A DNA stretch of 63,994 nucleotides, the filler included, from Bonamia ostreae (taxonomy: Eukaryota): assembly GCA_040357525.1 (NCBI GenBank). It is 17 parts of 17 records of this genome, joined end to end, with 100 filler letters (N's around TTAATTAATTAA, not from the genome) between each part and the next. Parts side by side here need not be neighbours in the genome. Positions count along the whole stretch, not along the records: positions 3,807 to 7,510 come from JBDODL010000445.1; positions 7,611 to 11,310 come from JBDODL010000446.1; positions 11,411 to 15,100 come from JBDODL010000447.1; positions 15,201 to 18,887 come from JBDODL010000448.1; positions 18,988 to 22,673 come from JBDODL010000449.1; positions 22,774 to 26,457 come from JBDODL010000450.1; positions 26,558 to 30,237 come from JBDODL010000451.1; positions 30,338 to 34,012 come from JBDODL010000452.1; 9 more parts are not named here. One strand, written 5' to 3'. Shown piece by piece: positions 6,070 to 63,946 of this stretch. A program made the translations under genes and the position numbers. The first letter of the stretch is position 1. Every line of letters begins with the position of its first letter. The notes beneath the pieces were generated by a model. The model saw only the letters and a program-made list of their open reading frames with translations. It had not been told where the DNA came from and did no database searches.

Positions 6070-7409
6070 ATGAGCAAAAAAGAACTTCCCAATCTAAACA
6101 TCGTCATCATCGGCCACGTCGACAGCGGGAAATCCACCACGTGCGGACAGCTGATCGCCAATCTTGGCAAAATCGACCAGCGAGTGCTTGACAAGTACGC
6201 CAAAGAAGCCAACGGTTTCGATTCTCACCTTAAGAAATGGGCAAGGGCTCCTTCAAATGGGCCTGGGTGATGGACAACCTCAAGGCCGAGCGCGAGCGAG
6301 GCATCACCATCAACAATTCGCTCAACGAGCTCTTCACCAAGACCAAGAAGATCACCATCATCGACGCACCCGGCCATCGCGACTTCATCAAGAACATGAT
6401 CTCCGGCACCTCGCAGGCCGACGCGGCCATCCTCATGGTCTCCGGCGCGAAGGGGGAGTTCGAAGCAGGAATCAGCGAAAACGGGCAGACCAAAGAACAC
6501 GCCATGCTCGCGCAGACGCTCGGAATCAAAAACTTCGTCGTCTGCATCAACAAGATGGACACCACCATCGGTCTAAAGGGGAAGGAGTTCGACAAAGCCA
6601 GGTTCGAGGAGATCAGAGACTACCTCAGCGACTTCCTCGTGAAGCTCAACTTCGCCAAAGAAAACTTCACATTCGTCCCCATCTCCGGGTTCGACGGCGA
6701 CAACATTGCCGAGAAGTCCACGCGCTGCAGCTGGTACAAAGGGCCTACTCTCGCCGCCATCATGGACGATATCAAGATCCCCAAGCGGCCTATCAAGAAG
6801 GCGCTGCGCCTCCCCATCCAGAGCATCTTCAAGATCGCGGGAATCGGTCTGGTCGCTTCCGGGCGAGTGGAGACGGGCGTCATGACGCCGGGGATGCAGG
6901 TCGTGATCATGCCCCTCAACAAGAAGTCCGAGGTGAAGTCCATCGAGATGCACCACGCGCCGATTCCAAAGGCGTTCCCGGGGGACAACGTGGGCTTCAA
7001 CATCAAGAACGTCGAGTACAAGTCGGTCAAGAAGGGGATGGTGGTGGGCGACGCGAACAACAACCCGCCGAAGGAAGCCAAGTCCTTCACGGCGAGGCTG
7101 CTCGTGCTCAACCACAGCGGGCAGATCAGAGTAGGCTACTCGCCCGTCGTGTTTGTGCACTCTGCTCATGTCACGTGCAAGATCTCGAAGATTCAGCAGT
7201 CGTTCGATAGAAGGACGGGCAAGACAATCGAGGAGAACCCGGATTTCATCAAGAAGGACATGGGCGCCATCGTGGAGTTCACCCCCGAACGCCCTCTCGT
7301 GGTGGAGTCGTTCAAGAAGTTCAGTCCTCTCGGGCGCTTCTCGATCCGAGACAGTAAACTGACCGTCGGTGTCGGTGTGATCATGTCCGTTGACTTTACG
7401 GAGAACTGA
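6070..7409 (+). CDS. EEF1A: Translation elongation factor EF-1alpha (divergent); 20-nt intron 6215-6234
   Basis: [41 protein letters not shown] motifs; removing gtttcgattctcaccttaag restores KEANEMGKGSF. Confidence 0.95.
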
Positions 7410-7664
7410 AAAGTAAACCGGTATTAAAAATCTCCTTTTACAAAATTTTTGTTTCTAGAAAATCTCCTGCTCATAATTAAAATGCGTCTGCTTTAATAGT
7501 GGGAAGTCCTNNNNNNNNNNNNNNNNNNNNNNNNNNNNNNNNNNNNNNNNNNNNTTAATTAATTAANNNNNNNNNNNNNNNNNNNNNNNNNNNNNNNNNN
7601 NNNNNNNNNNTTGAGGAAGACTTTAAGGTTGGTATTCTTAAATGTTTCAAACCTAAAATTTTAG

Positions 7665-8991
7665 GGACGATCCGAAAAAGTCCTGCTTCAAACTTAAAAA
7701 ACTGGTCTGGCAGCAGAGGCGGCTCGATGCATCGGTTGCAGCTTTTGATAGCAGAACATGGCTACAACTTGCTTAGGCCCGGGGGAATAATGGTGTACTC
7801 GACGTGTTCTTTGAACCCGATCGAGGACGAAGCAGTAGTCGCTGCTTTATTGACGCGTTCAAACGGCGAACTCGAATTAATGGACGTCAAGCAAGATTTG
7901 CCGAATTTTAGGACGAGGCCGGGTCTTTCGGAATGGAAAGTGTTCGTTAATGACGAAAAAGAGTTTTCTGACTTTTCGGAAGTGAGCGGAAAGGATAAAA
8001 GTAAAGTCAAAAAAACATATTTTTCGAACAAAAAGTACTCTCAGCTCGCTTTAGAAAAATGTGCGCGAGTTCTACCGCATGACCAAAACACGGGTGGATT
8101 TTTTATCGCAAAATTGCGTAAAAAAATTAAAAATGAATCAAAAAATGACGAAAATGAATCAAAAAATGGCGAAAATGAATCGAAAAATGGCAAAAATGAA
8201 TTAAAAAATGACAAAAATGAATCAAAAAATGGCGAAAATGAATTTTTAATAGACAAAAATGAATCAAAAAATGACGAAAATGAATTTTTAATAGACAAAA
8301 ATGAATCGAAAAATGACAAAAATGAACAAAAAAATGGGCCAAAACCAAAAAGAATAAAAATAAATCCCAAAAATTGCGTATTCAAAACAATAGACGAATC
8401 TTTAAAAGAAGGTTTATCCAAAGAATACGGAATTGCTGATCACAAGATTTTGAAACAATTGTTCTATCGAACTGATTCAAAAGACGATTCTTCAAATCCG
8501 CGGAAAATATATTATCTTCCTTCGAATCTGATAGAATATTTGAAAAGCAACAATTCGAAAATAATTTTAGCTGGAATCTGTCTTTTTGTGAGAGAAAACA
8601 GAAAATCGTTTGACGGCATTTTTAACTATCGATTTCTGCAACAAAGTATCGACTTTTTAGAACCTTTTATTAACAGAAAAGTTTTTACTCTTCAATCTTT
8701 GCAAAATAAAAGAAAATAGAGTGTTCATTCGAAACAATCGAACGCTTTTTAAAGACTGAAAGCAATTTTATAAATTTGACCCAAATCGATTCTGTTTTTA
8801 CGGAAAGAATGGAGAAAGAAATAGCAGGAACTTATCTCTTGAGTTATAAAACTCAGATTAATGGCACGGAAGAAAAGATAAGCGTTGTAGTCTTCTACAA
8901 AAAAACCGGCTTTGAAATGATGGTCGGCAAAAAAGTCTTGCAGCCTTTGCGAAGGAAACTTGAATGGATAGGAAAAAGTAAATCGATTTAG
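7665..8991 (+). CDS. NSUN2: tRNA m5C methyltransferase NSUN2/Trm4, C-terminal part; probable intron 8681-8712
   Basis: GTIRK, GGIMVYSTCSLNPIEDEAVV, RVLPHDQNTGGFFIAKL. Confidence 0.85.
8128..8335 (+). repeat. In-frame ~21-nt coding repeat (KNESKN[D/G]E) inside NSUN2
   Basis: Repeated aaaaatgaatcaaaaaatg(a/g)cg units. Confidence 0.85.
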
Positions 8992-62747: not shown

Positions 62748-62907
62748 TTCGAAACTGTAAATTTTATGATTGCTAAATATCGTCTTCGAAACGACATTTG
62801 TACAATAACATTAAAACGACAATGCGCACTAAAATTTTTAACCATCCCAATATAACAAAATTTAGCAAAACATCCGTTAAAGAAATTTAGCAAAAACGAT
62901 TTGTAAA

Positions 62908-63946
62908 ATGACCCAAAATCCCACCAAAGCGGTAATCCACCCGCTCGTCTTGCTCTCGATTTCAGACCACTTCGAAAGAGCGGGAAAACCGTCCAATAAA
63001 CGAGTCGCCGGGACTCTGCTCGGCTCGACCGACAGAAACGGCGTCGTCGAGGTGACGAACTGCTTCGCAGGTTTGTTCGATTCACCCAAAACGCCATTTA
63101 GTCCCTTTCGAGGAAGACAAAAAAGACGAGTCCGTCTGGTTCCTAGACCACGCTTATCACGAGAAAATGAGCAAACTGAGTTCGAAGGTGAACGGTTTGT
63201 CCAAATAACAAAAAGCGAAAGAAAAAGTCGTCGGCTGGTACTCGAGCGGCCCCGCGCTGCGCAGAATCGACATCGAAGTGTCGGCGCTGTACAGGAAGTA
63301 CTGCAAGTCGCCCGTTCTGCTCGTGATGGACGCGCGCGAAAACGCGTCGGTCGACCCGAAGACCTATTTTGTGGACACCGAACTCGAAGAATCGGAGCCG
63401 AGGGAGTCCCTGGCGCCGCTGGAGACCGTGATGGCCGCCACGGAACCGGAGGAAATAGGCGTCGAACATTTGCTTCGCGACGTCCGAGACAAAACGGCGC
63501 CGACTTTGGCCAAGAAAGTGCAGAGCAGAGACGAGGCCAAAAGCGATTTTGCGGGGAAGCTGGAAGCGATCACGGATTACTTGAGACAAGTCGAAACGGG
63601 CGAAATGCCTCGCAACGAGAAAATATGCGCTTTGGTTCGGGATCTCTTTAACGACGCCGTGAACAGCGAGAAAGATCAGTCCTTTGTCGATGTCTGATTT
63701 TTCTTAAAATGACAAATAAAGGCGTATGCGGAAAATGGAAACGACTCGTCGATAGTGTTGTATGTGGCGACATTGGCGAAGATGGTGGCGGCTTTGGCTG
63801 ATTTGGACGAAAATCGTTCGAAAAACAGGGCGAAAGCGATGGAACAGAAATCGGAGAAAAAAGGTCAAGTTGAGACCGAATCGGAAGAAATCGACGACGA
63901 ACAGTTGGCGGAAGAACTGATGATGGAAGACGACGAGTTGGATTAA
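62908..63946 (+). CDS. PSMD7: 26S proteasome lid subunit Rpn8/PSMD7; introns 63071-63101, 63195-63215, 63692-63721
   Basis: [52 protein letters not shown]. Confidence 0.95.

Follow-up and report, generated by a model that had tools for sequence, protein, structure and literature searches.

Few features of eukaryotic introns are as constant as the purine at donor position +3, a constancy that stems from its pairing with the U1 small nuclear RNA (snRNA). What, then, is to be made of a nuclear genome whose introns appear to begin with GTT, to end frequently with AAG, and to measure in many cases only 20–35 nucleotides (nt)? The question is raised by Bonamia ostreae, a haplosporidian (Haplosporida; Ascetosporea, Rhizaria) that lives as a parasite of flat oysters. 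The sequence analysed here consists of 17 of its scaffolds, each of 3,582–3,706 nt and sorted by length, which are joined by N44-TTAATTAATTAA-N44 linkers into one stretch of 63,994 nt, hereafter called the window. G+C content ranges from 22 to 48% per scaffold, and A (0.364) is the commonest base of the window, ahead of T (0.317). A sequence-only reading had proposed a micro-intron splicing system between positions 6215 and 63721, that is, from the start of an intron in the EF1A gene to the end of the third intron of the RPN8 gene. Our analysis confirms that splicing with GTT donors, AAG acceptors and tiny introns is real, and the segments are very probably authentic spliceosomal introns of the GT-AG class in the nuclear genome of Bonamia ostreae, with lineage-specific splice signals.

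Delimitation of the introns and the evidence for them

In total 34 GT-AG introns were delimited in 15 genes and sorted into three classes. Twenty are strong, with RNA, protein record or profile evidence that makes no use of donor positions +3 to +6. Four are donor-unique, meaning that the donor is common to all or nearly all frame-keeping candidates, and ten are weak, the shortest of several candidates having been taken. Among the strong introns, three were placed by joints or deletions in RNA contigs and one by a pair of contig breakpoints; one by an annotated protein and a 78%-identical relative that span the junction (EF1A); five by the top score of a profile hidden Markov model (HMM) among all frame-keeping GT-AG alternatives (RPN8 and CK1); and ten by Pfam profile coordinates together with conserved motifs. 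Only GT..AG pairs were enumerated outside the three RNA-joint introns, and GT and AG are thus at 100% by construction in the other 31. A Viterbi gene finder that used codon log-odds and bare GT/AG, with no donor motif, served as a lead only; it recovered the EF1A, RPN8 and CK1 introns, misplaced acceptors (59156–59200 against 59156–59177 in the RNA), missed long introns and predicted antisense "genes". Blind pairing of open reading frames (ORFs) through GT..AG candidates gave 624 pairs, which were too noisy and were not used. The strong introns are as follows.

6215–6234, plus strand, EF1A: 20 nt, GTTTCG..TTAAG; protein records
63071–63101, plus strand, RPN8: 31 nt, GTTTGT..TTTAG; 326.6 bits against 304.6 for the next, 29 alternatives
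63195–63215, plus strand, RPN8: 21 nt, GTTTGT..AAAAG; 326.6 bits against 313.8 for the next (same donor), 16 alternatives
63692–63721, plus strand, RPN8: 30 nt, GTCTGA..TAAAG; C at +3, 10 alternatives
17471–17490, minus strand, CK1: 20 nt, GTTGCA..TTTAG; 439.1 bits against 418.0 for the next, 9 alternatives
17893–17963, minus strand, CK1: 71 nt, GTCTTT..ATTAG; C at +3, 439.1 bits against 434.0 for the next (same donor), 7 alternatives
58635–58876, plus strand, PP2A-B55: 242 nt, GTTCTT..CATAG; RNA
59156–59177, plus strand, PP2A-B55: 22 nt, GTTTTA..AAAAG; RNA
59343–59534, plus strand, PP2A-B55: 192 nt, GTTGTT..TAAAG; RNA
59800–59827, plus strand, PP2A-B55: 28 nt, GTTTTA..AAAAG; indirect RNA support
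22013–22078, plus strand, TBC gene 1: 66 nt, GTTTTT..AAAAG; sole frame-keeping candidate, RabGAP-TBC profile running from 64 to 67 across the junction
22194–22221, plus strand, TBC gene 1: 28 nt, GTTTTC..TTTAG; the abutting candidate of 10, RabGAP-TBC profile from 107 to 109
29518–29627, plus strand, TBC gene 2: 110 nt, or 98 with the acceptor at 29615, GTTTAC..CAAAG; strong as regards the donor
35137–35158, minus strand, Rho intron 1: 22 nt, GTTTTA..GAAAG
34895–35000, minus strand, Rho intron 2: 106 nt, GTTTTT..TAAAG; Ras profile from 52 to 53
34503–34833, minus strand, Rho intron 3: 331 nt, GTTTTA..AAAAG; Ras-family profile coordinates of the flanking ORFs
37350–37663, minus strand, H+-pyrophosphatase: 314 nt, GTTTTA..AAAAG; H_PPase profile from 539 to 541, the fitting one of 3 candidates
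61317–61337, minus strand, M20 peptidase: 21 nt, GTTTTG..AATAG
61965–62498, minus strand, M20 peptidase: 534 nt, GTTTTT..AAAAG; partly on a conserved motif
54325–54371, plus strand, WDR3: 47 nt, GTTAAA..AAAAG; the fitting one of 3 candidates

Removal from RNA can be followed in the PP2A-B55 gene. Contigs from four public runs, X1 (DNA), X4 (labelled "RNA?"), X10 and X6, were aligned to its scaffold (56672–60312), which no contig of X10 or X6 matched. The DNA run gives a single colinear contig of 3,640 nt over 56672–60183 with none of the RNA joints. In X4, one contig joins 58633 to 58876 and skips 242 nt, with GT..AG ends reported by the aligner, and a contig of 711 nt (depth 663.5) lacks 22 letters at 59156 that the DNA run keeps and that have GT..AG ends by sequence. 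A further joint in the 711-nt contig, from 59338 to 59531 (cut +4, GT..AG ends, 255 nt on its shorter side), is likewise not found in the DNA run. Three introns of this one gene are thus missing from the RNA contigs and present in the DNA contig, which bears out the view that they are removed from RNA. At the fourth intron contig 11 of X4 ends at 59800, contigs 13 and 14 begin at 59828 and contig 12 is unspliced, with no spliced joint listed; the breakpoints suggest spliced and unspliced forms, and the B55 frame is kept when 59800–59827 is removed. Homology to the B55 structure in PDB stops at ..FLISTN, exactly at the donor at 58635. The 242-nt intron that starts there has a comparatively G+C-rich core, unlike the other introns, and an Rfam search of it returned a chance-level microRNA match only, on the opposite strand (E = 0.37).

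Protein records support the EF1A intron. The exon ORF (6234–7406) is 100% identical over its full length to Ef1a-f2p of Bonamia ostreae in NCBI/UniRef (P0001), and both P0001 and its 78%-identical relative P0002 read KEANEMGKGS uninterrupted across the junction. A search of JGI metagenome contigs with EF1A gave 80 loci, all 52–56% identical, and no close relative. For RPN8 and CK1, profile HMMs were built from 70 homologues each and every frame-open GT..AG alternative was scored; the junctions picked by eye came out on top in all five cases (29, 16, 10, 7 and 9 alternatives). The narrowest result concerns the third RPN8 intron, whose 326.6 bits compare with 324.6 when a GTCGAT donor lying six bases upstream is used, a margin of 2 bits between two donors that both have C at +3. 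Homology of the CK1 exon ORF stops at residue 138–139, at the intron 17471–17490. If retained, the second RPN8 intron (63195–63215) would bring in an in-frame stop and the third (63692–63721) in-frame stops.

The remaining strong introns were placed by the coordinates at which a Pfam profile ends in one ORF and resumes in the next. In TBC gene 2 the RabGAP-TBC profile runs from 146 to 150 across the junction, and both fitting candidates have the same donor. In WDR3 the Beta-prop_WDR3_2nd profile is matched up to position 211 (residue 77, nt 54324), and the next ORF takes it up at 210–212. Splicing of Rho intron 1 brings back the P-loop GDGAVGKT, and the alternative acceptor, five bases upstream, leaves the donor unchanged; removal of intron 2 links ..VIDLNLL to DTAGQDDYD, and after splicing the gene encodes a single uninterrupted Rho-like protein that ends in CCSIF. 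The H+-pyrophosphatase gene (36983–37785, minus strand) is represented by its C-terminal part only (profile 500–645 of 645) and runs off the scaffold end. In the M20 peptidase gene the downstream ORF begins at position 67 of the M20_dimer profile, and therefore the upstream ORF of 72 amino acids must stay whole; the only other donor for 61317–61337 would delete 31 residues, and the intron gives an in-frame stop if retained. Removal of the 534-nt intron of the same gene links ..ILFNCHYD to VVPVAKEMW, and the downstream ORF begins at position 8 of the Peptidase_M20 profile; this intron was chosen among 86 candidates by the H-x-D-V-V-P motif. Taken together, removal of the introns restores an open frame colinear with homologues in EF1A, RPN8, CK1, both TBC genes, H+-pyrophosphatase, WDR3 and Rho.

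Splice signals and intron lengths

The donors share a T at +3 that is found in 18 of the 20 strong introns, the other two having C and none having A or G. T follows GT in the window with a frequency of 0.449 (both strands, introns included), and the binomial probability of 18 in 20 is p = 3.5e-5. Position +4 is T in 16/20 and +5 is T in 13/20, with G at +5 in only 3/20; +6 is A in eight and T in eight, +7 is A in 11/20, and the last exon base (−1) is G in 9/20. The resulting 5' consensus is (A/C)(A)G-GTTTT(A/T), in which the hyphen stands for the exon–intron boundary, and the hexamer GTTTGT itself occurs in 2/20. Over all 34 introns the counts at +3 are T 29, A 3 and C 2, in agreement with the T 19, C 2 and A 1 that the sequence-only reading had counted in 22 introns, and its hexamers GTTTTT, GTTTGT, GTTCGC and GTCTGA all reappear in the re-delimited list. 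A purine at +3 is met in none of the strong introns and in 3/34 overall, so that the GTRAGT donor complementary to U1 ACUUAC is not the signal used here. GTAAGT, already reported as missing, occurs in 0/34, as does the U12-type donor /RTATCCTT (/ATCC-type). GTA donors, a few of which had been noted before (MSH5, WDR3), number three here, one each in PPR, "MSH5" and WDR3, and all fall in the weak class.

Two observations bear on the origin of this bias. Among the 24 distinct frame-keeping GT donors near the RPN8 and CK1 junctions only seven have T at +3, and the preference is therefore not a product of local base composition. It is also directional, because A, the commonest base in the window, never stands at +3 in the strong set.

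The acceptors depart from the usual pattern as well. The base at −3 is A in 14 and T in 6 of the strong introns, with no C or G, whereas the base preceding AG across the window is A in 0.42, T in 0.18, C in 0.20 and G in 0.20 of cases. A also prevails at −4 and −5, and the ending AAAG, which had been described as frequent, is found in 13 of the 20. In place of a pyrimidine tract and YAG there is an A-rich tail that ends in (A/T)AG.

Half of the strong introns (10/20) measure 20–31 nt, and 19 of all 34 are at most 35 nt, the full range being 20–534 nt. To this extent the description as a micro-intron system stands, but the remaining ten strong introns (47, 66, 71, 106, 110, 192, 242, 314, 331 and 534 nt) have the same GTTT donors and AAAG/TAG acceptors, and the system is not confined to micro-introns. 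The long introns are as well supported as the short ones, namely those of 242 and 192 nt in B55 by RNA, and those of 331 nt in Rho, 314 nt in H+-pyrophosphatase and 534 nt in M20.

How such short segments are told from exon is suggested by their interiors, which consist of 45% A, 35% T, 15% C and 4.7% G in the micro-introns. The window holds 821 GTT..(A/T)AG segments of 20–32 nt. Decoys of this kind number 19 in the 4,730 nt of verified exon, and none of them has one or no interior G, whereas 15 of the 19 micro-introns do. By themselves the intron ends are too poor in information, and an A/U-rich, G-poor body is probably part of what marks the intron. All five micro-introns whose length is divisible by three contain an in-frame stop, in line with selection against their retention. 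As had been stated, no convincing branch motif is seen in the micro-intron interiors; CAA occurs in 11 of 17, compared with 6.3 expected from shuffles, at 6–13 nt from the 3' end, and this excess is modest. Pairing of a 5' T run with a 3' A run within the micro-introns was considered and rejected, since the longest Watson-Crick run has a mean of 3.71 against 3.73 ± 0.20 with swapped 3' ends (P = 0.58).

Weaker introns and neighbouring genes

The donor-unique and weak introns are listed below.

8681–8712, plus strand, NSUN2: 32 nt, GTTTTT..AAAAG; donor-unique, acceptor possibly at 8721 or 8754
10302–10377, minus strand, PPR gene: 76 nt, GTTTTT..CAAAG; donor-unique, sole frame-keeping candidate of at most 130 nt
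16274–16349, minus strand, FG-nucleoporin gene: 76 nt (or 85), GTTTTT..; donor-unique, shared by 2/3 candidates, the third being 193 nt
54905–54977, plus strand, WDR3: 73 nt, GTTATT..TTTAG; donor-unique, donor common to 3/3 candidates
10059–10078, minus strand, PPR gene: 20 nt, GTAATT..ACAAG; weak, GTA donor, shortest of 11
10783–10803, minus strand, PPR gene: 21 nt, GTTCAA..ATTAG; weak, shortest of 9, in-frame stop if retained
10932–10954, minus strand, PPR gene: 23 nt, GTTTGA..AATAG; weak, shortest of 10
15720–15809, minus strand, FG-nucleoporin gene: 90 nt, GTTTAA..TAAAG; weak, shortest of 6, exon with Nucleoporin_FG repeats
21687–21709, plus strand, TBC gene 1, first intron: 23 nt, GTTCGC..TCCAG; weak, tightest of 24
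40474–40495, plus strand, gene labelled "MSH5" by the sequence-only reading: 22 nt, GTAAAC..AAAAG; weak, GTA donor, shortest of 3
54090–54116, plus strand, WDR3: 27 nt, GTAAAA..AAAAG; weak, GTA donor
57568–57593, plus strand, Sas10/Utp3-family gene: 26 nt, GTTACA..AAAAG; weak, shortest of 9
57828–57849, plus strand, Sas10/Utp3-family gene: 22 nt, GTTATT..ATTAG; weak, shortest of 7
61498–61596, minus strand, M20 peptidase: 81–99 nt, GTTGAC or GTTGCG donor; weak, ends ambiguous

In NSUN2 the donor at 8681 is common to three of five frame-keeping candidates, including all those below 74 nt, and the Pfam Pre-PUA_NSUN2 match stops at residue 354, just ahead of it. The same gene carries at 8129–8333 (plus strand) an in-frame unit of 21 nt repeated about ten times, by which a stretch rich in K, N and E is inserted between the methyltransferase domain and the pre-PUA domain. 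Removal of WDR3 54090–54116 takes out an in-frame TAA between two ORFs of the same frame; on the acceptor side the profile match begins at position 142, residue 8, and the upstream ORF is without a Pfam match. The M20 intron at 61498–61596 begins with GTTG in four of five candidates (donors at 61596 or 61587). PPR repeats are found in the exon upstream of 10302–10377. The large exon of the "MSH5" gene matches no Pfam family, and the gene name is unconfirmed. The two introns of the Sas10/Utp3-family gene lie where RNA contigs give no cover (none from X4 over 56794–58135).

A/T-rich tandem repeats make up most of two long introns, at 34504–34828 in Rho (periods of about 12–56 nt) and at 54489–54698 in WDR3 (25–50 nt), which points to repeat expansion as the way in which long introns lengthen.

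The protein collection contains the annotated B. ostreae EF1A, but in it the exon of the RPN8 gene (gene at 62908–63946) has no 100% match of at least 285 residues and that of the PPR gene (gene at 9315–11309), compared at the "longer" lengths, has none at all. Genes with several micro-introns, such as these two, may be truncated or missing in public annotation.

Among the other contents of the window are two G+C-rich genes of collagen triple-helix repeats at 3935–4573 (plus strand) and 4821–5420 (minus strand), with Pfam Collagen E-values of 1e-25 and 7e-23. They appear to belong to the parasite and not to the oyster, because the same 3.7-kb scaffold carries the parasite EF1A. An open frame of 729 codons at 41833–44019 (plus strand) has endonuclease and reverse-transcriptase domains and represents a non-LTR (long terminal repeat) retrotransposon. 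Rfam at the gathering score gave no snRNA gene or other match in the window, and at E ≤ 1 one irrelevant microRNA match; no tRNAs were found in the window.

Recognition of the donor and comparison with known systems

How might such a donor be read? The sequence-only reading had proposed a changed U1 or U6, or else recognition of the donor by proteins. Splicing would take place in two steps by an ordinary U2-type spliceosome. The canonical 5' end of U1 is ACUUAC (Roy & Bowser, bioRxiv 10.1101/2022.06.08.495308), and a canonical helix between U1 and the 5' splice site presumably could not define the donor, because ACUUAC pairs only with −1G, +1G and +2U of G-GUUUU. By analogy with Entamoeba, the 5' end of the U1 snRNA may have co-evolved to carry A opposite +3/+4(/+5), an idea that we find plausible while placing it somewhat short of probable. 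In the ACAGA box of U6, the A would be the partner of U at +4 and the G a possible wobble partner of U at +3, as has been pointed out for GUUUGU (bioRxiv 10.1101/2022.06.08.495308), and the contrast of an A/U-rich, G-poor intron with its exons would help to define the short introns. In a broader form of the proposal, which we offer tentatively and with more doubt, haplosporidians would be the second independent lineage, after Archamoebae, in which the U1 5' end was rewritten for a GUUUU donor or U1 was abandoned, and Bonamia would be a living intermediate on the way to the 16–17 nt introns and stripped spliceosome of mikrocytids. If this is true, intron miniaturisation and the co-evolution of snRNA and signal could be traced stepwise within one parasite class.

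Several points weigh against these readings and, in part, against the intron set itself. The RNA support consists of assembled contigs of one run, whose label "RNA?" is a guess, and covers one gene only. The joint of the 242-nt B55 intron has just 29 nt on its shorter side, under the 31-nt rule of the aligner, and there are X4 contigs that keep the 242-nt intron (58605–58905) and the 28-nt intron (59771–59851) beside the spliced forms; incomplete splicing might account for them, as might pre-mRNA or a DNA share of the library. Fourteen of the 34 introns depend on the unique-donor or shortest-candidate rules, and all three GTA donors sit in this weaker set, which leaves the true share of GTA uncertain. 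One WDR3 junction (54456–54699, plus strand) has no usable GT donor: the propeller profile reaches position 239 with ..GKDK at nt 54455 and continues from 240 with LIKYWD at nt 54700, and the skipped 244 nt start with TTTAAT, end with AAAAG and contain a 25-nt tandem repeat. Either the donor is not GT, or a base of the assembly is missing or changed (GTTTAAT would be a typical donor). As for the mechanism, the statements on U1 and U6 are all inference, since the data hold no snRNA or spliceosomal protein of Bonamia ostreae. With +5 and +6 poorly conserved (G at +5 in 3/20), a rewritten U1 would gain only two or three A-U pairs, and most lineages with atypical donors have kept a canonical U1, among them yeasts, Giardia, Trichomonas, Thecamonas and Mamiellales (bioRxiv 10.1101/2022.06.08.495308).

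That the bias is an artefact, produced by the choice of introns among many GT..AG pairs or by assembly errors and frameshifts, is highly improbable. The raw material for such an error exists in the 821 segments mentioned above, in the many junctions with 5–30 alternatives and in the several acceptors that an unguided gene finder set wrongly; it is nevertheless largely refuted by RNA contigs that lack exactly the predicted segments while the DNA retains them, by the protein records that span the EF1A junction, and by profile scoring, which favoured the chosen junctions in 5/5 cases with no donor motif in use, the strong 20 alone giving 18 T. A more serious alternative, which we still consider unlikely, is that U1 and U6 are both canonical, that the T run reflects passive A/T mutation pressure with relaxed selection at +3 to +6 in a parasite of small population size, and that proteins (U1C, SR-like factors, intron definition over about 20 nt) recognise the donor. 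Scaffolds of 22–48% G+C, a T after GT already at 0.449, the drift of +5 and +6 to background and the retention of canonical U1 in most atypical-donor lineages (bioRxiv 10.1101/2022.06.08.495308) all fit this explanation. However, A is more common than T and yet is found at +3 in 0/20 strong introns and 3/34 overall, and T at +3 is therefore a directional preference and not a lost constraint; the bias also persists in the G+C-rich EF1A and RPN8 genes, where local GT donors are mostly GTC.

It is also conceivable, though we rate it a little lower, that recognition is independent of U1, the U1 small nuclear ribonucleoprotein being lost or dispensable in haplosporidians as suspected for mikrocytids. 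The 5' site would then be read directly by U6, U5 and Prp8, +4U facing the A of ACAGA and +3U forming a wobble with its G. In favour of this, only U2, U4 and U6 and 17–19 spliceosomal proteins were identified in mikrocytids (PMC10245619), and GUUU fits the U6 ACAGA box at +2 to +4 (bioRxiv 10.1101/2022.06.08.495308). On the other hand, −1G is still favoured (9/20), a preference that reading of the exon end by U1 or U5 would predict, and the genome paper, in the text available, leaves B. ostreae out of the lineages that lost splicing genes and describes its reduction as less extreme (PMC11069148). The same paper, which annotated the genome by funannotate at default settings with a published transcriptome, reports 2 introns per mRNA, calls the introns "canonical" and the species not as reduced, and places the loss of splicing genes at the ancestor of paramyxids and mikrocytids (PMC11069148). 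For these reasons a reduced spliceosome, which the sequence-only reading had inferred, is so far unsupported for B. ostreae.

Among well-supported introns a share of 90% with U at +3 is rare, and the sole other case that we found in print is Entamoeba. The combination seen in Bonamia joins a GTT bias with ultrashort introns, each of which is known elsewhere (+3U/+4U in Entamoeba, ultrashort introns in relatives and other lineages), and neither is described in this lineage before; a literature search on how Bonamia or haplosporidians mark their splice sites turned up PMC11069148 alone, and it covered neither the supplements of that paper nor Fig. 3 of PMC10245619, both of which may bear on novelty. 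The system offers a second natural test case for co-evolution of snRNA and splice signal versus proteins that take over. In practical terms, half of the introns measure 20–31 nt and have low-information ends, and the default minimum intron lengths of aligners and gene finders will miss or misplace them; in the same way this may influence gene counts for ascetosporean genomes and the BUSCO genes scored as "missing" in them.

The closest parallel for the donor is Entamoeba. In five Entamoeba species GUUUGU(U) begins 88–90% of introns, a two-position departure that was called unprecedented, and the U1 candidate there has AACAAAC with the pairing site ACAAAC, while U6 keeps its usual motif (bioRxiv 10.1101/2022.06.08.495308). 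Bonamia resembles this in having U at +3 (18/20) and +4 (16/20), in A/U-rich introns with hard-to-define branch sites, and in being a parasite. It differs in that its consensus is GTTTT(A/T), with G at +5 in 3/20, a mixed +6 and A at +7 in 11/20, whereas the GUUUGU of Entamoeba is strict and followed by U at +7. Entamoeba introns are not described as 20–30 nt in the available text of that paper, where U1 was sought with an Infernal model left neutral at the pairing positions; the changed pairing site reported there would be a prediction for the U1 of Bonamia. Since Entamoeba is an amoebozoan and Bonamia a rhizarian, any likeness has an independent origin.

For intron length the parallels lie nearer. 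In the sister order Mikrocytida, every one of the 224 introns predicted in Mikrocytos has a length of either 16 or 17 nt (217 and 7 introns) and a highly conserved sequence, and in Mikrocytos mackini and Paramikrocytos canceri U1 and U5 were undetected, according to the portion of the paper available (PMC10245619). Mikrocytids share with Bonamia their place in Ascetosporea and ultrashort introns that are mapped by transcripts and incompletely spliced. In contrast to their uniform 16–17 nt, however, Bonamia introns range over 20–534 nt with only the ends conserved. Other ultrashort-intron lineages include myxozoans and Dicyema, with introns of about 22–26 nt and the donor "GTa" (PMC13644364), chlorarachniophyte nucleomorphs with 18–21 nt and heterotrich ciliates with 15–16 nt (cited in PMC10245619). 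These lineages and Bonamia have in common introns of about 15–30 nt with GT..AG ends, a pyrimidine tract that is weak or lacking, and A residues close to the 3' end that are likely to serve in branching. Unlike the "GTa" of myxozoans and Dicyema, A at +3 is found in 0/20 in Bonamia, which also mixes micro-introns with introns of hundreds of bases in place of a narrow length class. A last comparison is with Saccharomycotina, Giardia and Trichomonas, which combine GUAUGU donors with a canonical U1 (bioRxiv 10.1101/2022.06.08.495308). As in Bonamia, U at +4 fits the A of U6 ACAGA and the genomes are intron-poor or reduced, but these lineages retain an A at +3, and with it some of the helix formed with U1, where Bonamia has U.

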